From positions 96,001-160,000 of the IMG/VR virus record IMGVR_UViG_3300021256_000057: a stretch of 64,000 bases of DNA. One strand, given 5' to 3'. Below are positions 3,487 to 49,433 of this stretch, one piece after another. The DNA comes from a virus. Lineage: Duplodnaviria > Caudoviricetes. Positions within the stretch are counted from its first letter, which is position 1, and the number at the start of each line of letters is the position of its first letter. The notes beneath the pieces are model-generated. The model was given only the letters and a program-made list of their open reading frames with translations. It did no database searches and was not told the DNA's origin. The position numbers were made by a program, and so were the translations under genes.

Positions 3487-3806
3487 AAGTCTTTCTCAAC
3501 AACGACACACTTATCAGGATTTAAGTCAAACGCACCGTTCACCAATAATTTAAGTAGATTGTGTGCTGGTCTTAACTCTCTGTCAAGATTCTCACAATCT
3601 CCAAGTGTGATCTCGAACGGTTCGCCGACCTGCGGATAGATGAACAGGTGGTACCCGTATTCCGTAATAATTCTTAAGTCTGCAAAAACAACATTATGCG
3701 TGCTGATATATTCTACCCCTTCGTTAAGTTGCTCAATAATATCGCTATACGCTTCTGCTGTTGCATAGTGCTTATTGCCAAAGCAAACAACAAACTTCTT
3801 TTCCAC
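3483..3806 (-). CDS. Hypothetical protein
   Basis: ORF with RBS GAGGG, operon packing. Confidence 0.6.
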   Translation of the reverse strand: MEKKFVVCFGNKHYATAEAYSDIIEQLNEGVEYISTHNVVFADLRIITEYGYHLFIYPQVGEPFEITLGDCENLDRELRPAHNLLKLLVNGAFDLNPDKCVVVEKDL

Positions 3807-3824
3807 GGTGCAACCCTCACTTTC

Positions 3825-4142
3825 TCATAGTCTCATGATTGTTTCCGTTTCGTTTCGTATTTGCAATTCGTCCAGGATGACGGCTTTGAGCTCAGCCGGC
3901 GTCCGACGCTTTTCAGACAGGTAGTCTTTCAGCAGCTCTGACGGCAAGCCTCGCAGCAGCGCGATGGCGTCTTGTAGCCTGCCATAGGTGTAGTCGTGTT
4001 TGACGTCATAGTCTGCCGCGCAAATATTGTCATAGAAACAATACACGTCATTTTTGTCTTGGCACGATAGGTGGCACTTGCTGCACATACCTTCCATCTT
4101 CGCAACATAGTCCGTCTTAAGCTCTCCCCATGCTGTATTCAT
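3825..4142 (-). CDS. Hypothetical protein
   Basis: ORF with RBS GAGG. Confidence 0.6.
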   Translation of the reverse strand: MNTAWGELKTDYVAKMEGMCSKCHLSCQDKNDVYCFYDNICAADYDVKHDYTYGRLQDAIALLRGLPSELLKDYLSEKRRTPAELKAVILDELQIRNETETIMRL

Positions 4143-4154
4143 AGCCTCATTTCC

Positions 4155-4730
4155 TCACTTATGCCACCTCATCTTTAGAATGAATTTGATCATTTTCAAA
4201 TAGTTATCTCTAATTGTATCATAGGCTTTCTTAGATTCATCATCAGGCAGTCTATCGGATATGACATCAGATGTGGTATCAAGCCAGTCTTGATAGAACT
4301 TGGTCAGCTCCGATCTTGTCATCTCTTCAAGAGTTCTTAGAGCGCCATGATAAGAGTGAGCATCTACATTGATCAATTTGATGTACTTTGCTACTTCGTC
4401 AAATTCTTCCTTGCCGAAGAACTCAACAAGTACAGGCTCTAGCTGGATGATCTGTATATCATCTAGGAGGATGTCTACACCAGCTTGATCTACAGTAAAT
4501 ATCTTCATACTAGAGATACTAGCATTATCATCAATATAACCGTTCACTTTGTCAAAGAGCCAATTTACGCGACTTGCATCTCCATTGTTATGCCCGATAG
4601 ACCAAGATCGCAAGCTGATCGACTTGATCCTACAAAATGGAAGATTTTTCTCAATTAAGATACGTCTCTTATTATCTTTCAGGCCATTCTTCCATAACCT
4701 GACCCTAGCTATAAGCAGTCTAAGTGACAC
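4155..4730 (-). CDS. Hypothetical protein
   Basis: 191-aa ORF downstream of ACTCGTTATA motif at 4762-4771. Confidence 0.6.
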   Translation of the reverse strand: MSLRLLIARVRLWKNGLKDNKRRILIEKNLPFCRIKSISLRSWSIGHNNGDASRVNWLFDKVNGYIDDNASISSMKIFTVDQAGVDILLDDIQIIQLEPVLVEFFGKEEFDEVAKYIKLINVDAHSYHGALRTLEEMTRSELTKFYQDWLDTTSDVISDRLPDDESKKAYDTIRDNYLKMIKFILKMRWHK

Positions 4731-4848
4731 ACTATCACGCCTTTCGATTTGTGCTATCTATTATAACGAGTGTGAAAGAATCAAAAAGATGCAGTCCTAT
4801 TGAACTGCATCTATATGTAAATATTCTGTGAACGTATACACATCTATA

Positions 4849-4877
4849 TTGACTTATGTGGATTTATGTGCTATAAT
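4849..4877 (+). promoter_or_regulatory. sigma70/sigmaA-type promoter for the candidate acr operon
   Basis: TTGACT-17 bp-TATAAT, 31 nt upstream of ATG 4909 (RBS AAAGGTGG). Confidence 0.8.
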
Positions 4878-4908
4878 AAAGAAAACATGTAGAAAGGTGG
4901 CGATAGCC

Positions 4909-5649
4909 ATGACAAAAGAGACTGCATATTTGTTAGGGCAGGTCTATGGAAAACTGATCAGCCTTAACAAGAACTGGGACACGATGGCCAGACTAACGAT
5001 CGCTATGAGAAAGCCCATGCGAGCTATCACGGAGCTGCACTTGAATGCGATTCGTTCCAAATTTTTCACTGATGATGTACAAGAGTACATCATGTTCCGT
5101 CTTGCAGATGTGTCTGTAGATGATGCTATGAGCGATATGAACACAGAGACATCCAGCTCGTTCATGCTCGGTGTGCATTCCTTCGATCTGGATGCCCCAC
5201 AGCTCATCAAGAACATAGATCTAACACAGGAAGAGATCGCAGAAAAGCTCGGTGTGAGCGCAAACACTGTATCGAGATGGAAACTCGGTACATCATCGCC
5301 ATCTCAAAAGACGCTGTATAAATTGCAGAAGCTCAGGATCGATCCGTTCGGCTTTGAGAGATATGAGGATATGGTGCTGATAGACGAGGTATGGCATGAT
5401 CCGTCTCATCCGTATGAACTTATCGTAGAGGATCGTGGCAACTTCTATGTCTATGGTAAGCCGTTCATCAAATCCCCTAGTAGCAGTCAGTTCCGCAGAT
5501 TCCCCACAAGGCCGGTCGAAAAGGCAAGACCCGGATATCTCCATAGGTATGGCATCTGGGCAAGAGGATTATGCAGAAGAAAGGATGTAGATCTGTATGA
5601 AAAAGAAAAAGCCGGATCCGATGCCTCTGGCAGCGATCAAGAACCTTAA
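4909..5649 (+). CDS. Fusion: Cas8c C-terminal/Cas11-like helical domain (tentative) + XRE HTH + unknown C-terminal domain
   Basis: HTH clear (LTQEEIAEKLGVSANTVSRWKLGTSSP). N-terminus AYLLGQVYGKL...P..AITELHL...SSFMLG resembles the AYLxGRLFA...P..F..L...QGxFxLG pattern of Csd1/Cas11c. Confidence 0.55.
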   Translation: MTKETAYLLGQVYGKLISLNKNWDTMARLTIAMRKPMRAITELHLNAIRSKFFTDDVQEYIMFRLADVSVDDAMSDMNTETSSSFMLGVHSFDLDAPQLIKNIDLTQEEIAEKLGVSANTVSRWKLGTSSPSQKTLYKLQKLRIDPFGFERYEDMVLIDEVWHDPSHPYELIVEDRGNFYVYGKPFIKSPSSSQFRRFPTRPVEKARPGYLHRYGIWARGLCRRKDVDLYEKEKAGSDASGSDQEP

Positions 5650-6514
5650 AGAGAACCATCCTGATGTATGGCGGAAGGTCGATGCTAATGATATCAATTC
5701 TGCGGTAGAATATGCAAAGTCCCATAACATCCCTGAATCCGCATATATTATCGCTGCTCTGTCTCGGTGGAGACTCAGCAAGCAAATCTTTGAGGTCAAT
5801 GAGGAGCTGTGCAAGATCCTCATGAACTCGGATAAACTTGATGAGGAGATACCGAACGAAGTGATCAATAGATTGATCTACAACTCCTTTTACGTCAAAC
5901 TACCAGAGAATTTCTTGACAGTACGTTCTGTAAACGGAGAATCTATGGATCTTCCCATGGATGGCTTCTTCTACAATGTTATAAATAAATCCATCCTGAT
6001 CGTTATCATGTACAGTACAGGACACACCCAGAGCCTCGGATTTGACATCTACAATGACTTGTCGCTTAGGGCATGTATGGAGAAGCATATGACTGCTAAC
6101 AGTGATGTATACAAGACAGTCAACTTCTTCTTACAGATCGTTCTATATCTCTGTGCGGATAATGCGGACATTGAGGAAAACAAAGTTCAGCGCTCTGTGT
6201 ATAAGCAAAGTCCTATCGTAACAGATAGATACTCAGAAGTCCGTAAATGGGATGTTGGTTGGAGATATGGCAATGCTATTAAAAAGATGAGATCAAGTCA
6301 GGCTACGGATGGATCACACGCAGAAGCATCTCATGTTGGATCTCATACCAGGAAAAGGACACATGTCCGCAGAGGACACTATCATCATTACTGGGTAGGA
6401 TCTGAGAAGTCTGGTAACAGGGAGCTGATCTTAAAGTGGACATCACCAGTGGTAGTCAACGCAGAATACGAAAACACTGCAACTATCCACAGAGTTATCC
6501 ATAAAGTGAAGTAA
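5597..6514 (+). CDS. AcrVA2-like protein (AcrVA2/FinQ-related family)
   Basis: WRLSKQIFEV, LYLCADNADI, WDVGWRYG, KRTHVRRGHYHHYWVG, ELILKW..PVVVN follow the order of AcrVA2 motifs as I recall them (WR..GIYQL, LWLC..EPDI, YQIGERLG, PHIRRGHWHGYW, VRW..VFVN). Confidence 0.78.
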   Translation: MKKKKPDPMPLAAIKNLKENHPDVWRKVDANDINSAVEYAKSHNIPESAYIIAALSRWRLSKQIFEVNEELCKILMNSDKLDEEIPNEVINRLIYNSFYVKLPENFLTVRSVNGESMDLPMDGFFYNVINKSILIVIMYSTGHTQSLGFDIYNDLSLRACMEKHMTANSDVYKTVNFFLQIVLYLCADNADIEENKVQRSVYKQSPIVTDRYSEVRKWDVGWRYGNAIKKMRSSQATDGSHAEASHVGSHTRKRTHVRRGHYHHYWVGSEKSGNRELILKWTSPVVVNAEYENTATIHRVIHKVK

Positions 6515-6524
6515 GTAAAAAATG

Positions 6525-6603
6525 GGAGCTGTGCATCATAACAGATGTACAGCTCCTTTTCTATATCAATAAGAAATACCCTGCTAGTGTTATCCAGCAG
6601 GGC
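6525..6603. terminator. Two hairpins between convergent genes
   Basis: GGAGCTGT...ACAGCTCC followed by TTTT (6525-6560) and CCCTGCT...AGCAGGG-like stem (~6579-6602). Confidence 0.65.
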
Positions 6604-6613
6604 ATTGTCTTCA

Positions 6614-7042
6614 TCAAAGACCTAGTTTGTTTAGAATCCAAGCAGAAATGTTCGGAGCTGCATCTTCGGCCACCATGCGCTTGATCTGTTCAAGCTGCGC
6701 GTTGGTGACCGAGATCGACAATACAGTCTTCTCACCATCTTCATCAACATCACCGAAAATCTTTTCATACGCATCTACATCGAGATACTCCTCAGCCCAC
6801 TTCTTTGCGTCTGCGTATGACATCGGCATGATGCGCTCACCAGGAGCCCACTCAGACATACCAGCGGATTCAGCGTACTTGCTACCAGCATGGCCATATC
6901 CGTGCAGGAAGAACTCGCCACCGCGCTTGCGGTAGAGTGTCTCACAGTAGTAGTCATACTGTGATTTGGAGCTGTGCGTGTACTGTGCCAATTCCTGTGC
7001 TGTATCGGTGTCATACCGTTTTCCGTTAATAATCTTTTTCAT
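6614..7042 (-). CDS. Conserved phage protein (MKKIINGKRYDTxTA type), possible C-terminal ribbon-helix-helix
   Basis: Common phage N-terminus; C-terminal LSISVT...LEQIKRM...NISAWI. Confidence 0.6.
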   Translation of the reverse strand: MKKIINGKRYDTDTAQELAQYTHSSKSQYDYYCETLYRKRGGEFFLHGYGHAGSKYAESAGMSEWAPGERIMPMSYADAKKWAEEYLDVDAYEKIFGDVDEDGEKTVLSISVTNAQLEQIKRMVAEDAAPNISAWILNKLGL

Positions 7043-7064
7043 TGCATGTGATCCTCAATTCCGA

Positions 7065-7301
7065 TTATTCTCTAAAAAAGTCAACTCTGGAATTTCTGAA
7101 CGTTTTCGTAGTACCATCGGCGAATGTTACGATCGTGTACTCGTTGTATTCGTCGATTTCATCAATACCAGTGTTATGAGCTTCATCTGCACTGAGCTTT
7201 TTCACATCGAACGACCAGACATCCTTGTAAATACGCTCTTCGAGCTTCTTGCTTTCTACATTGTACTTGCAGCCATCGTAGATCTTTACCTTGATAACCA
7301 T
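7065..7301 (-). CDS. Small acidic hypothetical protein
   Basis: Strong RBS GGAGGTGG. Confidence 0.65.
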   Translation of the reverse strand: MVIKVKIYDGCKYNVESKKLEERIYKDVWSFDVKKLSADEAHNTGIDEIDEYNEYTIVTFADGTTKTFRNSRVDFFRE

Positions 7302-7330
7302 TGTACCACCTCCATTGTTTAATGTGCGTC

Positions 7331-7750
7331 TTACTGCATCAGCAGTTTCTTGATGATCTCCTGCTTGTGTTCTTTGATAGCATTCTTCGTATCTGCGGGC
7401 AGGATAGCCCAGCCAGGAACCAGGATGTGCTCACCGTCCTCGTGCATCCTAAGATGGTATTTTTCAATCAGCTCCTCGACATAGGACAGCGGAGTATGCT
7501 CTGCGATCCATCTCTCTGCGATCCAGCTCTCTGCGGTCTGTATGCTGTGCATCCCTGCGGTGATCTCGTCCCAGCCGCCCCACTCAGCATCATCGAGCAT
7601 CTCGATAACCTCACCGTCCCACAGGCGCTCTACCTTGTCACAGATCTCGTCATCGCTAAGGTCAAAGTCGATCACGGCAGTGCCACGGTCATCGTCCATC
7701 AGGATGAGATAGTTCATCGTGTTATCTTGGCCTACAAACAGTCTTCTCAT
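7331..7750 (-). CDS. Acidic hypothetical protein
   Basis: RBS AGGAGG; first gene after the sigma70 promoter at 7811-7839. Confidence 0.65.
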   Translation of the reverse strand: MRRLFVGQDNTMNYLILMDDDRGTAVIDFDLSDDEICDKVERLWDGEVIEMLDDAEWGGWDEITAGMHSIQTAESWIAERWIAEHTPLSYVEELIEKYHLRMHEDGEHILVPGWAILPADTKNAIKEHKQEIIKKLLMQ

Positions 7751-14613: not shown

Positions 14614-14841
14614 GGACAGCTCCGATGTAGATCTGCACGAGCAGCTTGTTCGGACGGTAGCTGGTACACTAGCTATCGAGGGCATCGAGCTGAGTGAGAA
14701 CAGCAAGCGTAACCTAGAGAGATACGCAAACGGTGAAGCCGATGCACAGCAACTGCTTGAAATGGGGTCAACCGCAATCCCACCGGATTTAGACGGTGGG
14801 TTAAGGTTGACAAATGGTATCAAAAATGATATACTGTAATT

Positions 14842-15246
14842 ATGAATAAATGGAAATAAAAAAACAGACATAAATATTTGTTGCAGTATCATGTGATATT
14901 TGTTTGTAAATACAGAAAGAAATTACTTTCAGCAAAAGAAATTTCAGATGATATAAAGCGATTGTCTTGCGAAATATGTCAAAAACATAATATAACTATC
15001 AAATATATGTGGACAGATAAAGACCATATACATTACATGATAGAAACAGAACCAACAATTTCGATAAGTAAATCTGTAAATTTAATGAAAAGTTATACAA
15101 CGTATCACATTTGGCAAAATCATAGTTATTATCTGTCAAAACATTTTTGGAAAGAACGTACATTTTGGACTGACGGATATTTTGTTTGCAGCGTTGGAAA
15201 TGTATCGGAGAAAATACTCAAATAGTATGTAGAAAATCAAGGATAA
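14842..15246 (+). pseudogene. tnpA: TnpA Y1 (HUH) transposase with two nonsense codons
   Basis: MNKWK*KNRHKYLLQYHVIFVCKYR...DHIH...KILK*YVENQG; stops TAA 14857-59 and TAG 15223-25, the latter directly before the catalytic Tyr. Confidence 0.88.
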
Positions 15247-15261
15247 GGGGGTGGGCAGTAA

Positions 15262-16359
15262 ATGTTAAAAGCATACAAATACAGAATATATCCAAATAAA
15301 GAACAGATGATGCAGATTATAAAGACATTTGGCTGCTGCCGATTTGTATATAATCAAATTCTGGCCTATCGAAAAAATCAATACGAAACAGAAAAGAAGA
15401 GCATGAGTAAAACTGCCTGTAACAATTACTGCAATCAAGTATTAAAAGCACAGTATGAGTGGCTGAAAGATGTGGATAAATTTGCCTTGACAAATGCGAT
15501 TTACGATATGGATACAGCTTATCAAAAATTTTTCAGAGAGCACACAGGTTATCCAAGATTCAAAAGCAGACACAATAAAAGAAAGTCATATACAACAAAT
15601 TTTACAAATAATAATATAGAAGTATTTGATAACAGCGTAAAGCTGCCGTATCTGAAAAATGTAAAAGCAAAAATACACCGAAAGTTTTCAGGTCAAATAA
15701 AATCTGCAACGATTTCACAAACACCAAGCGGAAAGTATTTTGTATCTGTTCTTGTAGAAACTGAACATAATGCACTTGCACATACTGATAAGAACATCGG
15801 AATTGATTTAGGAATAAAAGATTTGTGCATTACTTCCGACGGCAAAAAATATGAAAATCCTAAAACTTTGCGTAAATATGAGAAAAGGCTTGTAAAAGAA
15901 CAGCGGAAACTTGCACACAAGAAAAAATTAAGCAAGAACAGAGAAAAACAAAGAATCAGAGTGGCAAGACTTCACGAAAAAATAACAAATATCAGAAAAG
16001 ATTATCTGCATAAAATTTCTCATGAGATTATTAGCGAAAACAAAGTGATAGTTTCTGAAAATTTGCAGATAAGCAATATGATAAAAAATCATCATCTTGC
16101 AAAAAGCATAGCAGATGCATCATGGTATGAACTTACAAGGCAACTGGAATACAAGGCTTTATGGAACAACAGACAGTATGTAAAAGTTGATACGTTTTAT
16201 GCAAGCAGTCAGTTATGTTCCTGTTGCGGCTATCAGAATCCCAAAACCAAGGATTCATCTGTAAGAAATTGGATATGTCCAAACTGTGGAGAAAATCATG
16301 ACAGAGATATCAATGCTGCTAAAAATATACTTTCAGAAGGATTAAGGCTGTTAGCCTAA
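15262..16359 (+). CDS. tnpB: TnpB RNA-guided nuclease (IS605 type), RuvC residues intact
   Basis: [32 protein letters not shown] Zn finger, [10 protein letters not shown]. Confidence 0.95.
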
Positions 16360-16488
16360 AATAGTACGATATAGGGCAGGGACTGTCCGAATTTACGCCT
16401 GTGGAGTTAGTAGGTTACGAGGACTATGAAACAGGAAGCCCATTGGCTTTAGACAATGGGTAGTTCACGAGATCAAGAACCGATACAA
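16340..16488 (+). ncRNA. Predicted omegaRNA/reRNA of the IS605 TnpB (boundaries approximate); guide about GAGATCAAGAACCGATACAA
   Basis: Position between tnpB 3' end and right end; established TnpB architecture. Confidence 0.55.
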
Positions 16489-16533: not shown

Positions 16534-17547
16534 TTATTTTACTTTGTGGCTTGTAACATCGATCTCACCAGCAGCTCCATTTACGAAGCACTCCGATACC
16601 CATTTCACAACAAGTTCTTTGCTATCTCTCTTACCTACCCAGTACCGATGCCAATGTGCTCGGCGTAGATGCGGTCTAACTGTGCCGGTAGATTCTGTAT
16701 GGTCTCTAGATGCACCGAGACTTCCCTTTGTCCACTTACGGAATGCAGCTCCAAATCGTTCGCCTACATGATACTCTCTACCAGGTTTATTAGCTGGATC
16801 ACGATGCTTTTGTCTCTTGTAGCTTGCGTTCAGTGCTTTTGAAGTTGTAGTCTCACGGATGTCAGGAGCATATGAACACATGTATTCAAGAGTGTGCAGC
16901 AAAAGACTCCATAGTTTCTCGCGAACTTCAAAGAGATCAGGATCATCTACTCTGCTGATCTTCAATTGGCTCTCTACAAATTCTTCTGCTGTGCAGTCAA
17001 TGTCTTCATCTTTCAGGAATAGTACATGTGACGCACACATATATTCTTTGTCGAACATGTTGTGAAAAGATGCTCTGATCATCCAATAATTCCCGTACTG
17101 CTTGACGTTTACGATTCCACCTGCTACATTTGTTTTGTCGACCGCATATTGACAGTTTGCATAATCAATAGCGAATGTATCGACTGGAAGTCTTGATAGC
17201 ATGCCTTTAAGCATATTGATGTTCTGAGTGTCCATCAGTTCTTTTGTGAAATCGGAATCAAAAACGTAGATCTGCTTCTTCCTTTCCCACTGTGTATTCA
17301 GGAAATACTGATTCAGAGCACGGAACATCTGGTCGTAGCCATTCCTATCACAGTTCTTGTATACAAGATTCAGGAATCCAGTATGGTCGTGGCCATCTGC
17401 GATAGGGATTCCATTTGCCATAGCATAATAAATGTAAATAGCATCTTCCATCTCAACAGATGGTGTGGTTTTCAATATGTGGTCTGTAGCTTCAAACTTA
17501 TTCTTGAACTCTCGTATGCTGGCTCTCAGATCAAACATAGACGACAT
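16534..17547 (-). CDS. Second AcrVA2-like protein
   Basis: WERKKQIYVF, RLPVDTFAI, LEYMCSYAPDI, YHVGERFG, VRPHLRRAHWHRYWVG, ELVVKW..CFVN. Confidence 0.8.
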   Translation of the reverse strand: MSSMFDLRASIREFKNKFEATDHILKTTPSVEMEDAIYIYYAMANGIPIADGHDHTGFLNLVYKNCDRNGYDQMFRALNQYFLNTQWERKKQIYVFDSDFTKELMDTQNINMLKGMLSRLPVDTFAIDYANCQYAVDKTNVAGGIVNVKQYGNYWMIRASFHNMFDKEYMCASHVLFLKDEDIDCTAEEFVESQLKISRVDDPDLFEVREKLWSLLLHTLEYMCSYAPDIRETTTSKALNASYKRQKHRDPANKPGREYHVGERFGAAFRKWTKGSLGASRDHTESTGTVRPHLRRAHWHRYWVGKRDSKELVVKWVSECFVNGAAGEIDVTSHKVK

Positions 17548-17557
17548 CCCCCATCCG

Positions 17558-18064
17558 TTACAATCTCATTGTGTCATCTGTATCATTGCATCTCTGCATC
17601 TGATTCATCAGCACTGGTATCCACTTGTTACCTAGGTTTTCATCTCGAATCACTTGTATGCTGTTGAGGCATGTCGATTTTAGATGAATCATGTCAATGA
17701 TGTCTTTTGCGTATCGTTCGTTATCAAGGACTAAATAGTATACTGTTAAGAACAAAAGAAGCTCGTCCTGATCCTCTACATTCAAAGAACAGAATCGAAT
17801 AGATGACAGAATCGCATCTTTCGGAGATTTGAGTTCATTCGTAGTGATAACCATGTATTCTCTCAATGCGTCCAATCGGCTATTCAACGGTTCAATGAAT
17901 GTAGATGGGTGGTGTCCCTGTATCATAATCATTACATACAGTACATTAGTATTATTGTATAAGAAATTGCTGCGCATACATTTGTTTAATACTCGAAGTC
18001 TATACCTAGCACTTAGGCCTCTAGGATATATCAGATATTCATTCAATTTCCTCACCTCTACCAA
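17558..18064 (-). CDS. Hypothetical protein (start uncertain)
   Basis: 168-aa ORF next to ACTCGTTATA at 18066-18075. Confidence 0.5.
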   Translation of the reverse strand: MVEVRKLNEYLIYPRGLSARYRLRVLNKCMRSNFLYNNTNVLYVMIMIQGHHPSTFIEPLNSRLDALREYMVITTNELKSPKDAILSSIRFCSLNVEDQDELLLFLTVYYLVLDNERYAKDIIDMIHLKSTCLNSIQVIRDENLGNKWIPVLMNQMQRCNDTDDTMRL

Positions 18065-22082: not shown

Positions 22083-24359
22083 TCATTTCAATCCGCTCCA
22101 TTTACCGTGATTTGTAACACTTGCTACCTTTTTACCTTTCCACCCTGTTAGGTCGATGACGGTAGACTGGTCTGTTGCATATGCGGATGAGCCATTTTTC
22201 TCCCACTCTATGATGTCGATCTTACCGCCGTAAAGATGACCCCATGATGTAGGTGCATCTGCCCCTTTTGAATCCGCCATAATAGCAGTAAACTTTGTGC
22301 CATCTTCTAGTGTAATGGTCAATAGATCTCCTGTAATTCCAAACCGAGGAACCATCGCCAATAGATAATGTCCAGAAATTGTAGCTATATTTCGACTGCT
22401 TGGACGTCCCTGAGAGTTCCAAATATCAGCAAGCTGTCTTTGAACAGTACGCGCTTTCCACTTCGGATACCAATAACTATAGTTAGTATAGTTTTCTGCA
22501 ACACCTTTCTGATCGACATTTGCAGGAATTGTAACTGTAGTTCCTCCTGCTGGTGGTGTTGTATCATACACCATACCCTCAGTAGGATAATAACCAGTTA
22601 TCGTATGGGATTCCACATCAGATGGATCAAGCATAAAGAACTCTGGATATAGGAGCTGTTCAACTTCTGATATCTCCTCTACATGCTCTACCATCCACCA
22701 GTAGAAGTCCTCTTTCCACTCGTCCCACGAAATAGTTGCTATCTGATCTCGGTCTACATAGAAGCCCATCTTACTTACAAGACCGAGTTTTGTCAATCTC
22801 TCCTTGTATGTCTTGATGATGCTGTCATTCATCGTTTTATCCTCTTCCTTGAATGCAAATGTAAGCCAGCATCCGAGAGGAGGTGTATATTTCTGTATGA
22901 TGAACTGTAGCTCTTGCAGTTCTGCCTTGGCTTCATCTACATTTCTAGCTCGAATATCAAAATACAGAGCATAGGGCATCTCAGCATCTTTAGCAAGTTT
23001 CACTTGTTCATCTATCTTCGGATTTCTATATCGAGCTACTACCATATGGGATTTATCATATAAAAAGCCGCCCTCTATCATGAGAGCTACGACTTTTATC
23101 TCTTTGAGCTTGTCTATATCTATATCTTCACTCTTGCGGTCTATAGTAGCGATATAAGGAGTAAATGTAGTCCAATCTACATTGACAGCTCCGCCGAATG
23201 CAGCTCCGAACGCGGTTAGTCCGTTTAGGCCAGCAGTCGTTGTATAGCCACCAGCAGTATATCTAAATGCAGTAAACCACTTATCGTTATAGTAGTTATG
23301 TACCCAAACTTCCCAGCCTGTCTGATCTCCCTCTTTACCGCCATGTGCTCCCTTAAACTCGTTCTGAGATGCTTCGACAAGTTGCCCATCTCCAACATAC
23401 ATTGCTGTATGCCCATGAGCTAACAGCACATCGCCTCTAATTAGATTTGCATAACTAGATGGATTGAAATTAGGAACATATGAGAAACCAGTCTTTATGA
23501 AAATGGCTTCCATATTTCTTGTATTTGAGGCATGATTTGTTTTAACAGGAACACCTGCGTTCTCATATGCCGATATCACAAGAGATGAGCAGTCATAATC
23601 TGGACCCCATCGTGAGCCCTGGTCATATCCGTGAGAATCATCGTTTGCTATATTGATAGCCCACTGTACTGCATACTCTACTTTTGTTATCTGTGTAACA
23701 GGTGGATAGTAGGCTACACCAGATGTAGGATTGCTACCACCAGCAGTAGCACCATAGTCATAATCAAGATCTACGTTCCCATGTATGCCTGGAATAGTCC
23801 CTCTCTCTGAATACTGCCACATGCAGTATGTTCCTTTTTTATAGTAGGAAGGAGAACTGCCTCCGAACTGTGCGACCCACACCTTGTATCCAGTCAATAG
23901 ATCATTTGAAAAGAAATCGTTCAGTGCAGATGCGTTAGAATATAAGCCAAGGTTTCTAACACCAGACATTTTCATCGTATTGAAAAACGCCCTTGTATTA
24001 TTTGAGACTCTATCTGCACCAAGGCTAATTAGTTTGTGAGGGTTCGGATTTTTCCCTCCAACATCCTCCACATCATAGAAGATAGGATACTCAAATGTTT
24101 TACCTCGAATCGCATTTAAGCAGGCGGATGCTTCTTTCACGCATCCTGCCTCATTTGATGCTTGACAGAACCAATATATACCGCATGGTATATGATACTG
24201 TTTACAACTCGCGTATGAGGCTTCAAATTTAGGGTCAGTAGATGTACCATACCCAGCTTGTATGATCACAAATTGAACTTTTCCAGACGAAACGACCTGT
24301 TGCCAGTTGATAGGTCTATCATAATTGTGTTTAGAGATATCTATACCCATCAATGCCAT
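22083..24359 (-). CDS. Multi-domain peptidoglycan hydrolase: GH25 + NlpC/P60 + degenerate GH25-like barrel + C-terminal domain
   Basis: GIDISKHN, YDVED, WQYS..G..PGI.GNVDLD; YDCSSLV...GDVLL..GHTAMY. Confidence 0.85.
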   Translation of the reverse strand: MALMGIDISKHNYDRPINWQQVVSSGKVQFVIIQAGYGTSTDPKFEASYASCKQYHIPCGIYWFCQASNEAGCVKEASACLNAIRGKTFEYPIFYDVEDVGGKNPNPHKLISLGADRVSNNTRAFFNTMKMSGVRNLGLYSNASALNDFFSNDLLTGYKVWVAQFGGSSPSYYKKGTYCMWQYSERGTIPGIHGNVDLDYDYGATAGGSNPTSGVAYYPPVTQITKVEYAVQWAINIANDDSHGYDQGSRWGPDYDCSSLVISAYENAGVPVKTNHASNTRNMEAIFIKTGFSYVPNFNPSSYANLIRGDVLLAHGHTAMYVGDGQLVEASQNEFKGAHGGKEGDQTGWEVWVHNYYNDKWFTAFRYTAGGYTTTAGLNGLTAFGAAFGGAVNVDWTTFTPYIATIDRKSEDIDIDKLKEIKVVALMIEGGFLYDKSHMVVARYRNPKIDEQVKLAKDAEMPYALYFDIRARNVDEAKAELQELQFIIQKYTPPLGCWLTFAFKEEDKTMNDSIIKTYKERLTKLGLVSKMGFYVDRDQIATISWDEWKEDFYWWMVEHVEEISEVEQLLYPEFFMLDPSDVESHTITGYYPTEGMVYDTTPPAGGTTVTIPANVDQKGVAENYTNYSYWYPKWKARTVQRQLADIWNSQGRPSSRNIATISGHYLLAMVPRFGITGDLLTITLEDGTKFTAIMADSKGADAPTSWGHLYGGKIDIIEWEKNGSSAYATDQSTVIDLTGWKGKKVASVTNHGKWSGLK

Positions 24360-38608: not shown

Positions 38609-40570
38609 TTACCCTACTTCGCGCTCCCCGACGATCAAACGCTGCTCGCGGTCATAGACTTCATCGAACTCCTCCATGATCGGATCATACTGGATGTCGG
38701 ATAAACGATCAGCCGTCTGCACTCCGACCCTTCCGTCATCATTGCGAAACAGAGAGATGAAACGGATATCCATTGGATGCTCATCAGCCTCATGATCCTG
38801 ATAGACTGCCGCCATATTGAATGCCTGCTGCACAAAATAGCTATGTGTCGTCACAAACACCTGTACACCGATCCTGGAGAGGTTGATCAATGCCTTGGCG
38901 ACCGGGTAGATCATCTTGGGATTCATATTAGCCTCCAGCTCATCCCAAAACAGGATCGAGTTGTTCGCCAGTCCACCGGACATTACGAGATACATCAGTG
39001 TAGCCAGCTTACGGTATCCCTCAGAGACAAGGCTCATCTCAAAATTGCCCTCGCCATGGATCTTCAGGAAAAACTGATCGTTATCTTGTGAGATGTTTCC
39101 CTTGATGATGTCAGAAAATAGCGTAAGGACCGAGTTTTGCTCCTCGCTATCACGTCCCTTCTGTAATGGCCATAATAGCAGCTTTGCAAGATCATAATAC
39201 GTTTCATCGAATCCGATCTCGTACCGCTCATACAGCGAACAAAAAGCACCAGCAGTGGAAATGATCTCCTTGGGCGGGATATAGACCGGGGTAAACTCCG
39301 TTTCCACTCCGTGATCCAACTGGTAGTCTAGATGGTTGATCTGCTTATTCGAGAACGAAAGCCTCACATCGGCATCATTGTCAAATACAGTATGGATACT
39401 GGCTCTTGTTGCTCCTGTGCGCGTCACAAGTCGATGAAGGGCATGATTGCTAGGCTTAAAAACATTTATCAGCTTTTTAACAAACGCACCTTCAACCGCC
39501 GCCTTGGTTTGATCAGCGTGCAGTTCACGTCCGAGTTTTGACAACACAGCAGCCTGCGTATACAGCAGCTTCATCAACGCTGTTTTACCTGTGCTATTCT
39601 CCCCAAATATGACGTTCACATCTTTAGAGAGATCAATATTCAATTCCTGAAACAGCATAAAGTTCTGGATATCCACATTCTTGATCTTCATCGATATGGG
39701 CATGTCATGTGTATGTGCAGGAGTCTGCTCAGTCTTGCCGTAGCCGTTCAGCCCCCTGCCCTTGATGATGGCCGGGAAATCCTTATTGCAGATATCCAGA
39801 TCCACATTGCCGTTGATGCCTGCAACCTTGCCATTCTTAGAATGGTGCCAAAGGCCGTAAGCACCGCTGTAATTTGTCTCATCGACCCAGTTCGCCAGCC
39901 AGATGGTGTAGCGGCTCTTGATGTCATCGGAGGTGTGTGTGGTCAGCGAAGAAGCCGAGCCGTGCAGACCGACAAAATAGCCTTCCGCTTCCACCCTTTC
40001 AAGGAACGCCCGCATGATCGCCGACACCTTCTCCTTGCCGAGAGCAAACTGCTTTTGTTCCTCCACAGCATAGTACACAGGGAACTCGAACTGTTTTCCC
40101 TTGATGACAGACAGGAAAACATCCGCCTCCAATCGTGCCTCGTCCTCACTCATGGCGTAGGAATACCAGTATGCACCGACCAGAACGCCAGCCGCCTTTG
40201 CGCCGAAGTAGTTCTGCTCGAAACACTCGTCCTTCTGCGATGCAAGTCTGCCGTACCCTGCATGCAGGATGGCATAATCAATGCCGTCAGCCTTGACATT
40301 ACCCCAGTCAATATCGCCGTTGTGTACGCTCACAACAATACCCTTCATATCCTCGCCTCCAAAATACTTGTAAAAATCATCGGTCACGGTGTTGTTACCG
40401 TGGACTTCATCGCCATACCACTTGCCGTTCGGGCGCACATCGACATGAGTGTACTGATATGCCGCCGTGATGTTTGCGATACCCGTGAAGCCAATATCTT
40501 GTGCAACTTGCACAGTGCGGTTTTTATTTTCCCTAGGGGAAATACAATACAGCATGTGCAAGTTGCACAA
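38609..40570 (-). CDS. Chimera: truncated M15-like peptidase tail + GH25 with mutated catalytic Asps (from 40348) + AAA_21/AbiEii-type ABC ATPase (from 39691)
   Basis: THVDVR; MKGIVVSVHNG, YYAVEE, NGNVDLD; GENSTGKT, VSEGYRK, LFWDELEANMNP, VTTHS; GC content visibly higher than flanks. Confidence 0.78.
   Translation of the reverse strand: MCNLHMLYCISPRENKNRTVQVAQDIGFTGIANITAAYQYTHVDVRPNGKWYGDEVHGNNTVTDDFYKYFGGEDMKGIVVSVHNGDIDWGNVKADGIDYAILHAGYGRLASQKDECFEQNYFGAKAAGVLVGAYWYSYAMSEDEARLEADVFLSVIKGKQFEFPVYYAVEEQKQFALGKEKVSAIMRAFLERVEAEGYFVGLHGSASSLTTHTSDDIKSRYTIWLANWVDETNYSGAYGLWHHSKNGKVAGINGNVDLDICNKDFPAIIKGRGLNGYGKTEQTPAHTHDMPISMKIKNVDIQNFMLFQELNIDLSKDVNVIFGENSTGKTALMKLLYTQAAVLSKLGRELHADQTKAAVEGAFVKKLINVFKPSNHALHRLVTRTGATRASIHTVFDNDADVRLSFSNKQINHLDYQLDHGVETEFTPVYIPPKEIISTAGAFCSLYERYEIGFDETYYDLAKLLLWPLQKGRDSEEQNSVLTLFSDIIKGNISQDNDQFFLKIHGEGNFEMSLVSEGYRKLATLMYLVMSGGLANNSILFWDELEANMNPKMIYPVAKALINLSRIGVQVFVTTHSYFVQQAFNMAAVYQDHEADEHPMDIRFISLFRNDDGRVGVQTADRLSDIQYDPIMEEFDEVYDREQRLIVGEREVG
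40499..40570. repeat. Palindromic site A: 16-bp terminal IR around a TATTTTCCCTAGGGGAAATA core
   Basis: TTGTGCAACTTGCACA (40499-514) / TGTGCAAGTTGCACAA (40555-570); CCCTAGGG at 40531-38. Confidence 0.8.
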
Positions 40571-44845: not shown

Positions 44846-46507
44846 TTACTTTATCCAGACGTAAACTCCTTGACCACAATCATATACTGGTAGCCATCCA
44901 TGGGAGAGCATCAGTTCTTCATTATCTACTCCTTTGCCATAGTCTGTATTAAACAGTTGATCAAATCCTCGTCTCAGCAAGAGGTTGTTTGTTATCTTTT
45001 CCGACCCATGAGACCAGACTTTTGTTGGTGCTGTGTCATGATGATGTGTGAAGCCTAGTTTTGTGTACACATCTCCTGAGAATTTTGCTTTGTCACAGTA
45101 TGAGATGATCGATATAGGGTCGTGGTCTTTGAGGAAGTGCTTGAATAGTCGTTCTGCTCCACCTACTACATAGTATCCTGTCTTGGTACAAAGGCGCAAT
45201 AGCTCCCATTGGTAGTTTTTGTTGTATCGTGGTAGACCGAAGGTCATGATCTGCATTAGCCCATCCTGGTAGTACAGGCCATAGCAAACTGTTTGACCGC
45301 GGCAGTAACCTTGTAGATGGTAGTTAGATTCAAACTCTTTGATAACTGAGGCGTCTGAGATCTCTTTTACGCTGCAAGCTCTTGCCTGTATCCTTTGCTT
45401 GTCTAATAGGAGATTTACAATGTCAAACTGATTGTCCCAGTCGAAGATGTGGATGCATCTGTAACCAGCATCGGTCGCTACATTTGTTTTGTCTAAATGG
45501 TACTTAGGTGAGATGCCTTTGTGATTCCAATGATTTCCGATAGTATTGTGTGTATAAGTTGGATCGATCTCGATAACAACATTCTTGCTTGGGATGAGCA
45601 CGTCATATCTCTTTGTGCCGATAACATGCTCGAACTCGCAATGGATTCCATATGCCTCAAGTATCCTTGCGAATTTCCTGTTTGCTGTAGAGACAACAAA
45701 ATGTCCGTTGTTCATCAGGTATTCATCTGTCAGAACAAAGTACGGAACACCATATCGAGCTAGGGTAGTCTGCTTCATCTTCTCTGCGAACTCTGGTACA
45801 TGAACAGCCCGTTTTACTCCGTATCTTCTGATCGTGGTATCCCGAGACTTCAAAGCAAACTTCTTCTTGTACTCAGTACCGTATCTAGCGACTTTAGTAG
45901 CAACTCCCTTCTCTGCAATCTCTCTAAGCTGCATCGGGTTTGGAACTCCGTACTTAGCAATATTTGTGGCGCGGATACGTTCAACTATCTCAGGCACTCT
46001 TGATGCATTATCCACACCGTACTTTTCTTGCATGGTTGCTTTAACTTTGTCTGCAAGAGCTGGAGATTGCAATGTATAAGATGCACCATATCTATCTTCC
46101 ATTGTCTTACGACCAGCAGAGTAAACATCTGGATTTCCAATAGCCCAGTCTGTTCCAAACTTCTGTTGATTAGTACGGATAGCTCTCTGCTTGATTGCAT
46201 CAGACTGCAATGGGGATTCTACCCCATAGGTGCAAAGCATGGATTCTTTGAAGTGCTCCTTTACTGATTCGTTTTGCATAGGATGTTCTACACCATACTT
46301 CTCAATGTTCTGCTTCTTCGTAAATGCTCTGCTGCACTCTCGTGAGCAGAAGACGTTACGATCACTAGGACGTTTGAATGGTATTGGTGTACCGCAATTC
46401 TTACAAGGTCGGTAGTGCTGTTTGTCGCAGATCTTTTGAGTTTTGCAGGAAGTTACAAATTGTTCACCACATATCTTACAAACTCTCTTGTACTCAAAGT
46501 CCATCAC
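44846..46507 (-). CDS. Putative homing endonuclease: Zn finger + KYGV repeats + PD-(D/E)xK-like nuclease + GNAT-like C-terminus
   Basis: CKICG, FCSREC, about seven KYGVEHPMQ-type repeats, RYDVL...VIEID...H, IHIFDWD, WELLRLCTK...VVGGAERLF. Confidence 0.72.
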   Translation of the reverse strand: MMDFEYKRVCKICGEQFVTSCKTQKICDKQHYRPCKNCGTPIPFKRPSDRNVFCSRECSRAFTKKQNIEKYGVEHPMQNESVKEHFKESMLCTYGVESPLQSDAIKQRAIRTNQQKFGTDWAIGNPDVYSAGRKTMEDRYGASYTLQSPALADKVKATMQEKYGVDNASRVPEIVERIRATNIAKYGVPNPMQLREIAEKGVATKVARYGTEYKKKFALKSRDTTIRRYGVKRAVHVPEFAEKMKQTTLARYGVPYFVLTDEYLMNNGHFVVSTANRKFARILEAYGIHCEFEHVIGTKRYDVLIPSKNVVIEIDPTYTHNTIGNHWNHKGISPKYHLDKTNVATDAGYRCIHIFDWDNQFDIVNLLLDKQRIQARACSVKEISDASVIKEFESNYHLQGYCRGQTVCYGLYYQDGLMQIMTFGLPRYNKNYQWELLRLCTKTGYYVVGGAERLFKHFLKDHDPISIISYCDKAKFSGDVYTKLGFTHHHDTAPTKVWSHGSEKITNNLLLRRGFDQLFNTDYGKGVDNEELMLSHGWLPVYDCGQGVYVWIK

Positions 46508-48251: not shown

Positions 48252-49433
48252 TTAAACTACGATATTGCTTTTAGCGTAGTTTCTTAGATTTATGGCCGCT
48301 TGTAGATCTCTGTCTATGGTGTTGCCACATTCAGAGCATACATATATTCTATCAGATAGTTTCAAGTCTCTTTTGATGTTACCACAACATGAACATAATT
48401 TGCTTGATGGATAAAATCTGTCTGCTGTGATAAACTTGATGTTGCCCCACTCAGACTTGTACTTCATCTGCCGATATAGCTCATAAAAACTCTGCTCTTG
48501 CACTGCTTTTGCTAGATGCCGATTCTTCATCATTCCTACTACATTCAAGTCTTCCATAACAATGAACTTTGGTTTTCGGCTCACAATTTCGGTAGTTACT
48601 TGATGAAGATAGTTATGACGAATATTTGTCAGTTTTCTGGAAACGACAAGCAATGCCCTCTGTGCTTTTGTAATGTTGCTTGTTTTACAGTATCTTTCTC
48701 CTTTCTTGTTTTTAAGGTATTTCCTTGATACCCTACGCTGCAACCTGCGTTTCTTCTTAGTCAGTTTCTTGACCCTTTTCGACTTATTGATGTTCTTATA
48801 GGTACGACCATCAGAGCATATTGCGAGATCCTTGATACCAATATCTATGCCGATGCCATCGTTTTTAGGTAGCTCATTACATCCCTCGCACTCAACACCT
48901 ACTGATATCCACCAATTAAGACCATCAAATGTTATTCTTGGATTTGAATAATGTGCATCCACTGGTATCCTACCATGCTCTGCAAGTCTGATCCAATTCA
49001 ACGATTGCCGATTTGCTTTTCTGCTATCAGTTATCTTCTCAAGTTTCACATGAGTATCTGTAAATTTGATTTTTACATTATCCATGTAGAAACTAGGTCG
49101 AGATTTACGCTTACTCTTGAACTTTGGAAACTTTGCTCTGCCGGAAAAGAAGTTTTTGTATGCGGTACAAGCATCTTTAATAGCCTGTTTTGCTATATTG
49201 TTGCTGTACTCTTTTAGCCATTGATACTCTTCTGTCTGTTTCAACTGAGTGAAGATTCTCCTCAGATCACAATCGGATAGGAACTTGCCACCAGATTCAT
49301 AGTTTGATTTTTGATACCCCAAAGCCCAGTTATAGGCAAAGCGAGCTACACCAGCATTTTGAAACAGCCTAGTCCTCTGTTTGTTGTTTGGGCAAAGTTG
49401 GACTTTGAATGTCCGAATCATATGTATCATCAC
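48252..49433 (-). CDS. tnpB: TnpB RNA-guided nuclease (IS607 type), RuvC residues intact
   Basis: GIDIGIKD, VMEDL, YPSSKLCSCCG, CSECG, IDRDLQAAINL. Confidence 0.95.
   Translation of the reverse strand: MMIHMIRTFKVQLCPNNKQRTRLFQNAGVARFAYNWALGYQKSNYESGGKFLSDCDLRRIFTQLKQTEEYQWLKEYSNNIAKQAIKDACTAYKNFFSGRAKFPKFKSKRKSRPSFYMDNVKIKFTDTHVKLEKITDSRKANRQSLNWIRLAEHGRIPVDAHYSNPRITFDGLNWWISVGVECEGCNELPKNDGIGIDIGIKDLAICSDGRTYKNINKSKRVKKLTKKKRRLQRRVSRKYLKNKKGERYCKTSNITKAQRALLVVSRKLTNIRHNYLHQVTTEIVSRKPKFIVMEDLNVVGMMKNRHLAKAVQEQSFYELYRQMKYKSEWGNIKFITADRFYPSSKLCSCCGNIKRDLKLSDRIYVCSECGNTIDRDLQAAINLRNYAKSNIVV

Follow-up and report, generated by a model that had tools for sequence, protein, structure and literature searches.

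Introduction

Demonstrated cases of anti-CRISPR (Acr) proteins that derive from Cas subunits are limited to type I-B (AcrIB3 and AcrIB4) and to Cas3 homologues. AcrIB3 is a homologue of Cas5, and AcrIB4, which is present on mobile elements of Listeria seeligeri, is a homologue of the last 90 amino acids (aa) of Cas8b and blocks type I-B; for both proteins a mechanism has been proposed in which a defective complex is formed (10.1101/2023.06.24.545427). In addition, 24 orphan viral cas8c hits in IMG/VR, on contigs without a CRISPR-Cas locus, have been proposed to function in anti-defence (Katz et al. Table S3; 10.1101/2023.06.24.545427). Here we analyze a two-gene cassette on the + strand of a ~184-kb tailed phage. 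The window, i.e. the whole stretch of DNA analyzed (64,000 nucleotides), corresponds to bases 96001-160000 of the 183,567-bp IMG/VR virus record IMGVR_UViG_3300021256_000057, and the cassette occupies positions 4849-6557 of it. The protein encoded by its first gene (gene 1) starts with a domain, hereafter the N-domain, that we conclude from profiles and a predicted fold to be homologous to Cas11c, the C-terminal domain of the type I-C subunit Cas8c; its second gene (gene 2) encodes a member of the AcrVA2/FinQ family. We propose that the cassette is an autonomous early or accessory operon (a "moron") with an anti-defence role and two components, which makes it a strong candidate self-regulated anti-CRISPR operon.

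The N-domain resembles AcrIB4 in being an orphan homologue, carried by a mobile genetic element, of the C-terminal ~90 residues of a Cascade large subunit that are equivalent to a small subunit. The two differ in several respects. AcrIB4 derives from Cas8b of type I-B, with which it shares 38% identity, and has been reported only from Listeria, whereas the N-domain derives from Cas8c/Cas11c of type I-C, displays 15-19% identity to solved Cas11c chains and is fused to a helix-turn-helix (HTH) and a third domain. Moreover, AcrIB4 inhibits target DNA recognition by Cascade, while the N-domain is known here from sequence and model. The orphan viral cas8c genes likewise are cas8c-derived genes on viral contigs that lack CRISPR-Cas. 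They are 24-26% identical over roughly 320-540 aa and, having been found by BLAST-level similarity, represent larger Cas8c fragments; the gene 1 family in contrast consists of a minimal, Cas11c-sized domain that only profile or fold comparisons detect and that is often fused to an HTH.

A third arrangement to which the locus can be compared is the fusion of an Acr to an anti-CRISPR-associated (Aca) regulator, in which one polypeptide joins an inhibitor domain to an autoregulating HTH, as we propose for gene 1. AcrIIA1 and AcrIF24 are proteins that we take to be of this type. Neither in these nor in other Acr-Aca fusions did we find a Cas-subunit homologue as inhibitor domain, and the basis for proposing regulation by gene 1 is a conserved inverted repeat. 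Further examples are AcrIIC9 and HTH-bearing Listeria Acrs (10.1101/2023.06.24.545427), and AcrIIA36 contains Aca12 as one of its domains (PMC13551039). Cas-derived Acrs, orphan viral cas8c genes and Acr-Aca fusions are thus each known already. In our literature searches we came across neither a described HTH fusion of a Cas11c-sized domain derived from type I-C nor a described pairing of such a protein with an AcrVA2-family gene. The initial annotation of this DNA likewise knew of no description of the arrangement. The arrangement is not unique to this phage, however, as shorter relatives, composed of a Cas11c-like domain plus HTH or of the Cas11c-like domain alone, occur on other phages and on mobilisable elements.

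Results

The N-domain of gene 1 matches Cas11c in profile and predicted fold

Gene 1 (P0001; 4909-5649, + strand) encodes a protein of 246 aa that is composed of the Cas11c-like domain, an XRE-type HTH and a C-terminal domain lacking any match. The N-domain (aa 1-97; 4909-5199) is predicted to be a five-helix bundle. By itself it gave no direct match in Pfam, NCBIfam or PADLOC, and a feature search of the ESM Atlas was empty. A HMMER search with a five-sequence N-domain profile yielded 17 distant relatives, which consist either of the N-domain plus an HTH (~150 aa) or of the N-domain alone (84-110 aa). A 21-sequence alignment of the N-domain displays the pattern Y.LG.(I/V)YG.L ... P ... (E)LQG.F.(I/L)GYY. 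The four best PDB matches of the 21-sequence profile were four different Cas11c chains (E 0.2-0.3), and the Pfam family matching most N-domain members was Cas_Csd1 (3/21, best E 0.041).

The structure predicted by AlphaFold2 (AF2) for the N-domain from the 21-sequence alignment had a predicted local distance difference test (pLDDT) score of 89.8 and a predicted template modelling (pTM) score of 0.83. The ten best Foldseek matches of this model were all type I-C Cas8c or Cas11c proteins, with template modelling (TM) scores of 0.56-0.73 and E values of at least 0.14; below these the TM scores dropped to <0.3. A structural search (VIA, all-against-representatives) gave Z scores of 9.6, 9.4 and 9.3 to residues 464-571 of Cas8c of N. 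lactamica and residues 495-606 of Cas8c of D. vulgaris, with 92-93 of the 97 residues aligned. The next fold scored 4.8, and type I-A Cas11 and Cse2 scored 3.5-4.7. Values were slightly higher for the free Cas11c chains 8dex_J, 9jhc_A, 7kha_K and 9jhb_B (Z 10.2-10.7). Across the Cas8c and Cas11c chains 89-94 of the 97 residues could be aligned with a root-mean-square deviation of 2.7-3.2 A. The initial annotation had proposed from the letters of the sequence that gene 1 starts with a helical domain of ~90 aa of the Cas11/Cas8c kind, and had set structural comparison with the Cas11/Cas8c C-terminus beforehand as the refuting test; the similarity was found, with Z scores of 9.3-10.7.

The direct statistics, i.e. 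the E values obtained with PDB, Cas_Csd1 and Foldseek, are weak, and helical bundles often reach middling Z scores. Both facts would fit a chance or convergent resemblance to Cas11c, with the N-domain being a small helical bundle of a generic kind. Profile-profile comparison argues against this explanation. For this analysis Cas8c sequences were retrieved with a 72-residue Cas11c fragment. The N-domain family aligned by hhalign to the C-termini of 15 Desulfovibrionales Cas8c proteins with a score of 82% (E 1e-5), which rose to 97.6% (E 4.3e-12, 91 columns, covering the whole domain) after addition of six Clostridia Cas8c C-termini. Reversed or column-shuffled templates gave at most 3.2%, and ten unrelated neighbouring proteins at most 2.7%. 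Also contrary to a chance resemblance, the end motifs Y.LG..(F/Y) and QG.F.(L/I)GYY agree in order and spacing between the N-domain family and Cas11c, and the gap in Z scores between the Cas11c chains and the next fold is wide (10.7 versus 4.8).

A genome scan provided another line of evidence. An N-domain profile built only from the mobile-element family was run against all six frames of 400 Clostridia genomes and produced eight matches. Seven of these fell exactly on the last ~100 codons of cas8c open reading frames (ORFs) of ~600 aa that are followed by cas7c and cas4, and these seven coincide with PF09709 (Pfam) matches in the same genomes. Together, the predicted fold, the profile-profile comparison and the genome scan strongly indicate that the N-domain is a true, diverged homologue of Cas11c, and a chance resemblance is highly improbable. 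The domain identities of the cassette proteins as a whole we regard as close to certain.

In one Clostridia genome (locus L043, G289:C1:1794526-1797565) we observed that cas8c is split into a 469-aa N-terminal and a 189-aa C-terminal part, with an ORF for an insertion sequence (IS)-type transposase between them.

The N-domain lacks features of functional Cas11c

The phage domain shares the helical-bundle fold and the terminal motifs with the Cas11c/Cas8c C-terminal domain (PDB 7KHA, 8DEX, 8G9S and 9JHC). In contrast to Cas11c, it is acidic instead of basic, is fused to a DNA-binding domain and lacks two conserved segments. Residues 1-97 of P0001 have a net charge of -3 and an isoelectric point (pI) of 5.2, and the N-domain family is mostly acidic, whereas the Cas11c equivalents have net charges of 0 to +4 and a pI of 7.1-9.2. 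After the sequence GYYHQ, Cas11c proteins end in an aromatic-x-K-K tail ((F/Y)-x-K-K). This tail is absent from the N-domain family; in the window protein the last helix is followed by HSFDLDAP and by the linker to the HTH. The corresponding tail residues of D. vulgaris, F605, K607 and K608, make contact with the displaced non-target strand; among the residues with such contacts they are the best conserved (10.1101/2022.06.15.496202). Also missing from the N-domain family is the segment TIKDRY, which is conserved in Cas11c. These losses, read from the sequences, would be expected of a subunit that fits into its slot without supporting locking of the R-loop.

The genetic setting differs as well. 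The N-domain does not lie in cas8c or in a type I-C cas operon and constitutes instead the N-terminus of an HTH protein. No Cas8c, Cas7 or Cas5 was found in the 183.6-kb phage record, which contains no cas gene besides the N-domain of gene 1. The N-domain is therefore an orphan, and it shares with AcrIB3 and AcrIB4 the trait of being an orphan Cascade-subunit homologue on a mobile element.

Gene 1 contains an HTH and a candidate operator overlaps its promoter

Residues 98-142 of gene 1 (5200-5334, + strand) form an XRE-type HTH (Pfam HTH_3 1e-10, phrog_8 3.5e-11), and the PDB sequence matches of this region are HTH proteins of the XRE, PezA and MqsA types. A sigma-70-type promoter precedes the gene (4849-4877, + strand; TTGACT-17-TATAAT, 11/12 match). 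Its -35 box TTGACT is located at 4849-4854 and its -10 hexamer at 4872-4877; the latter is of the extended type (TGcTATAAT). This promoter is the sole 11/12 match within positions 4000-7500 and is conserved in the related loci L001-L003. An inverted repeat, ATACACAT-N12-ATGTGGAT (4836-4863, + strand), is present around the -35 box and constitutes a candidate operator. The window copy contains one mismatch; in L001-L003 the arms form a perfect 8-bp inverted repeat, ATACACAT-N12-ATGTGTAT, and in L003 they are retained despite a diverged spacer between them. The repeat around the -35 box, of general form ATACACAT-N12-ATGTG(G/T)AT, is kept in four loci, all of them closely related.

A Shine-Dalgarno sequence, AAGGTGG (4894-4900, + strand), is located 8 nt 5' of the gene 1 ATG and is invariant in the four aligned loci. 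A longer gene 1 ORF starting at GTG-4828 finds no support among the homologues, which all begin with MTK or MNN, and its start would be located upstream of the -10 box. The last 53 nt of gene 1 overlap gene 2 (P0002; 5597-6514, + strand; 305 aa), and the cassette ends with an intrinsic terminator (6524-6557, + strand) that consists of a 14-bp stem with 7 GC pairs, a 6-nt loop and TTTTCTATATC. The neighbouring genes on both sides are located on the - strand and possess terminators of their own (4812-4787 and 6606-6575). The cassette is one of three + strand islands in a window in which the - strand carries nearly all long ORFs. These data bear out the initial description of one of few + strand operons, equipped with its own near-consensus sigma70 promoter and a terminator, and of an XRE HTH as the middle domain of gene 1. 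The same gene pair, with the same overlap, was found in four related metagenomic contigs, where gene 1 is 54-92% identical and where the pair occupies the same place in related phages.

A search for an RNA anti-CRISPR acting through a type I-C repeat-like handle (GTGGATTGAAAY) remained at chance level.

Shorter relatives of gene 1 occur on other phages and mobilisable elements

Several shorter relatives could be placed in their genetic context. The gene for P0054 adjoins a CHAP endolysin gene, in opposite orientation, at the end of a prophage-like contig. P0052 is encoded by an element that contains Mob_Pre, a zeta-toxin and a serine recombinase, and relatives of the relaxase of this element are found in genomes of Ruminococcus, Oscillospiraceae and Lachnospiraceae. 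P0055, which lacks an HTH, is encoded by a phage contig; it is, together with P0056, P0062 and P0066, one of the stand-alone N-domain proteins. At the P0052 and P0054 loci (L015 and L051) the Cas11c-like-HTH gene is in second position, directly behind a gene for a ~90-aa acidic protein (L015 3698-3982; L051 931-1194). The two acidic proteins are homologous to each other (BLASTP E 2e-5), gave no PDB sequence match and are candidates for a further Acr family.

The profile scan detected no member of the N-domain family in the 400 Clostridia genomes, and the N-domains had no tblastn match in isolate phages or plasmids. Being absent from these collections, the N-domain family appears to be rare and known only from metagenomes. 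A search of genome contigs for loci related to that of P0052 yielded nothing, and the full-length gene 1 alignment gave only HTH-level matches in viral contigs.

The HTH, the promoter-flanking inverted repeat and the gene order at L015 and L051 are all consistent with the main rival of an anti-CRISPR function for gene 1, namely that gene 1 is a regulator only. It would then be an Aca-like or C-protein-like repressor of the cassette that exapted a Cas11c-like bundle for dimerisation or partner binding and leaves Cascade unaffected; the role of effector would fall to gene 2 in this phage and to the small acidic protein encoded upstream in the shorter relatives. The two loci display the classical acr-aca order, with the ~90-aa acidic protein first, and the loss of the DNA-holding features of Cas11c fits a domain outside CRISPR biology equally well. 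Against this explanation, stand-alone N-domains without HTH exist, which is unexpected for a mere dimerisation module, and the whole Cas11c bundle, with 91-94 of the 97 residues, has been kept instead of just a helical hairpin. In addition, ordinary XRE repressors dimerise without a Cas11c-like domain. On balance we consider that a purely regulatory gene 1 is unlikely, while giving it serious weight.

The C-terminal domain of gene 1 (aa 143-246; 5335-5649, + strand) is conserved in all five full-length homologues with the pattern LIVEDRGNFYVYGKP ... QFRR ... RKDV.LYE.EK. It matched no family in Pfam, NCBIfam or PADLOC and nothing in PDB or the ESM Atlas, which agrees with the initial impression that the HTH is followed by a domain without known relatives. 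AF2 prediction of full-length gene 1 (5 sequences) gave a pLDDT of 52, with low confidence for residues 143-246. We considered that this domain could be a fused copy of the small acidic protein of the shorter relatives and rejected this, since the two did not match significantly (E 0.43 and 6.2).

Gene 2 belongs to the AcrVA2/FinQ family

The initial annotation had noted the AcrVA2 motif series in gene 2, and sequence comparisons fully agree with that observation. Gene 2 matched phrog_6160 (1e-35) and the solved AcrVA2 (PDB 7ci1, E 9e-6), the latter on the motif KR.H.RRGH.H.YW. Its assignment to PF26125 ("AcrVA2-like") was taken from precomputed annotations of its homologues: the family is annotated on all 39 database homologues and on the orthologous genes in L001-L003. 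Among 12 aligned family sequences, gene 2 included, residues R254, H256, R258, H261 and H263 are invariant and W58 is near-invariant. In AcrVA2 the equivalents of H256, R258, H261 and W58 are H286, R288, H291 and W79, and mutation of any of these AcrVA2 residues abolishes or weakens down-regulation of mRNA (10.1101/2022.11.29.518452). Gene 2 thus is, by sequence, a true member of the AcrVA2/FinQ family in which the essential H-x-R...H motif is intact. It shares the conserved C-terminal domain with AcrVA2 of Moraxella bovoculi (PDB 7CI1) and FinQ. In comparison with AcrVA2, the sequence likeness is limited to the C-terminal ~80 residues, the N-terminal half is not alignable, and D89 of AcrVA2 is replaced by Asn.

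Homologues of AcrVA2 are mostly present in hosts without Cas12a and include FinQ, an inhibitor of conjugation that acts on F transfer and on plasmid transfer genes, and the family diverges in its N-terminal part (10.1101/2022.11.29.518452). For these reasons membership of PF26125 does not give the target. Homologues of gene 2 are also encoded, as unnamed proteins, by Erwinia jumbo phages and by Lactobacillus, Leptospira and Pasteurella phages. Upstream of the more distant homologues we found a gene for a Cys-rich protein, for a 190-aa protein or for a protein with a metallo-beta-lactamase fold. As these upstream genes differ, the pairing with gene 1 is specific to this phage group. No Cas11c-like domain was detected in the partners of other AcrVA2-like genes or in the neighbours of the cassette (hhalign at most 2.7%).

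The window contains a second, strongly diverged AcrVA2-like paralogue of 337 aa (16534-17547, - strand). It matches gene 2 in the C-terminal 125 residues only (E 3.9e-13, 34% identity) and has a different N-terminal half.

The widespread presence of the AcrVA2 family where Cas12a is absent, the inhibition of F transfer by FinQ, the unnamed homologues in Erwinia jumbo, Lactobacillus and Leptospira phages, and the second paralogue, whose different N-terminal half suggests several targets, are all compatible with a cassette that is not anti-CRISPR at all. Its role would then be in the rivalry of mobile elements or in taking over the host, the FinQ-like gene 2 silencing an unrelated target and gene 1 regulating, and the Cas11c ancestry would be of historical interest only. 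Such an explanation leaves unaccounted for that an orphan Cascade-subunit homologue has been kept on several unrelated phages and mobilisable elements. Moreover, the sole tested precedent for an orphan small-subunit homologue is an Acr. We consider this explanation rather improbable.

Some further observations were made on AcrVA2-like loci. The paralogue at 16534-17547 is preceded by a gene for a 168-aa protein (17558-18064) that is not Cas11c-like. It adjoins an IS605-family TnpB gene (ORF 15262-16359, + strand), which encodes OrfB_IS605 and Cas12f1-like TNB domains and is located in a patch of low GC content (35%); the AcrVA2-like gene in L008 likewise adjoins TnpB. At L005 a gene for another 168-aa protein (3498-4004, + strand; Cys pattern C.C.CG...SCGC) is located directly 5' of an AcrVA2-like gene, with a 4-nt overlap. 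The latter protein resembles, by eye only, the CapR zinc-finger domain of CasPR DNA-binding anti-CRISPRs (10.64898/2026.02.23.707548).

The phage and its probable host

Among the proteins encoded in the window are one that is tail-sheath-like, others that are tape-measure-like, and GH25 endolysins. For the tail sheath there was only a match of 25% identity to a Stenotrophomonas phage. No close relative was found among isolate phages, and the cassette had no blastn match in phages. The IS605/TnpB element of the window (14771-16479) is 73-74% identical at the DNA level to multi-copy elements in two Clostridia genomes. The GH25 lysins, these IS605/TnpB copies and the taxonomy of the elements that carry the relatives together indicate that the host probably belongs to the Clostridia. 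Type I-C was present in 46 of 401 sampled genomes of this class. A scan of 20 kb of phage DNA against 400 Clostridia genomes matched IS copies and gave no convincing spacer match.

Other genes in the window include an unusual 653-aa ORF (38609-40570, - strand), in which a GH25 lysozyme domain (aa 80-252) is joined to an AAA_15/AAA_21 (AbiEii/OLD-like) ATPase, and a second gene for a GH25 protein (22083-24359), in this case with ELLD/NlpC-P60. A transposase (48252-49433, - strand; phrog_506, 9e-112) and a large homing/HNH endonuclease (44846-46507, - strand; phrog_3339, 6e-88) are also encoded. Transposases and a homing/HNH endonuclease indicate that the phage carries several selfish elements.

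Discussion

By analogy with AcrIB4, we consider it most likely that gene 1 encodes a defective-subunit anti-CRISPR directed against type I-C that carries its repressor in the same polypeptide and has an AcrVA2-like effector as partner. For the component claim that gene 1 acts against type I-C, we judge the evidence to be evenly balanced. According to this proposal the Cas11c-like domain would occupy the place of a small subunit along the Cas7 backbone in the host's type I-C Cascade. Alternatively, it would cap the minor filament formed by Cas8c's C-terminal domain and Cas11c. In either case the phage domain would act as a dominant-negative small subunit, and the resulting Cascade would be defective because the domain would be unable to keep the R-loop stable and has two further bulky domains attached. 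A dimer of the HTH would bind the inverted repeat at the -35 box and shut off the strong promoter after an early burst, in the manner of an Aca protein. If such autorepression takes place, gene 1 would be an Acr-Aca fusion. Gene 2, as an AcrVA2-like protein, would recognise the nascent N-terminus of a protein of the host or of a rival element and trigger loss of its mRNA. Gene 2 would thereby block new synthesis, while gene 1 would deal with complexes already present.

Several observations weigh against a defective-subunit anti-CRISPR. First, the N-domain of the window protein itself is divergent: it scored 6.7 bits against the Cas11c hidden Markov model, and its GYY motif has decayed to GVHS. 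It is accordingly the family profile and the predicted fold that support the link to Cas11c. Second, the C-terminal domain of gene 1 is left without an explanation. Third, the gene order in the shorter relatives is acr-aca-like, with the Cas11c-like-HTH gene in the position of a plain Aca regulator and not in that of an Acr. Finally, the target of gene 2 need not be a CRISPR protein, since AcrVA2 homologues are mostly present where Cas12a is absent and include FinQ, so that gene 2 alone does not serve as an anti-CRISPR marker.

A more elaborate version, which we consider distinctly improbable, is that the cassette is a two-layer weapon against one system, in which gene 1 is also a sensor. Docking of gene 1 on type I-C Cascade would then both poison the complexes and release the repressor from its operator, so that the cassette would be expressed in proportion to the Cascade present in the cell, while gene 2 would recognise a nascent type I-C Cas protein and destroy cas mRNA. 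If true, this would mirror the strategy of AcrVA1 plus AcrVA2, which is directed at existing complexes plus biogenesis, against a class 1 system.

Should the N-domain family indeed be a family of Cas11c-derived Acrs, the "faulty subunit" principle would apply to type I-C as well, one of the most common CRISPR types and one that serves in large-deletion genome editing. BLAST, and Pfam at normal thresholds, missed the family, which indicates that cas-derived inhibitors overlooked in catalogue searches can be recovered by combining profiles and folds. The fusion to an HTH would provide a compact and possibly self-limiting off-switch, and the link to an AcrVA2/FinQ-family gene may offer a handle on the targets of that widespread family.

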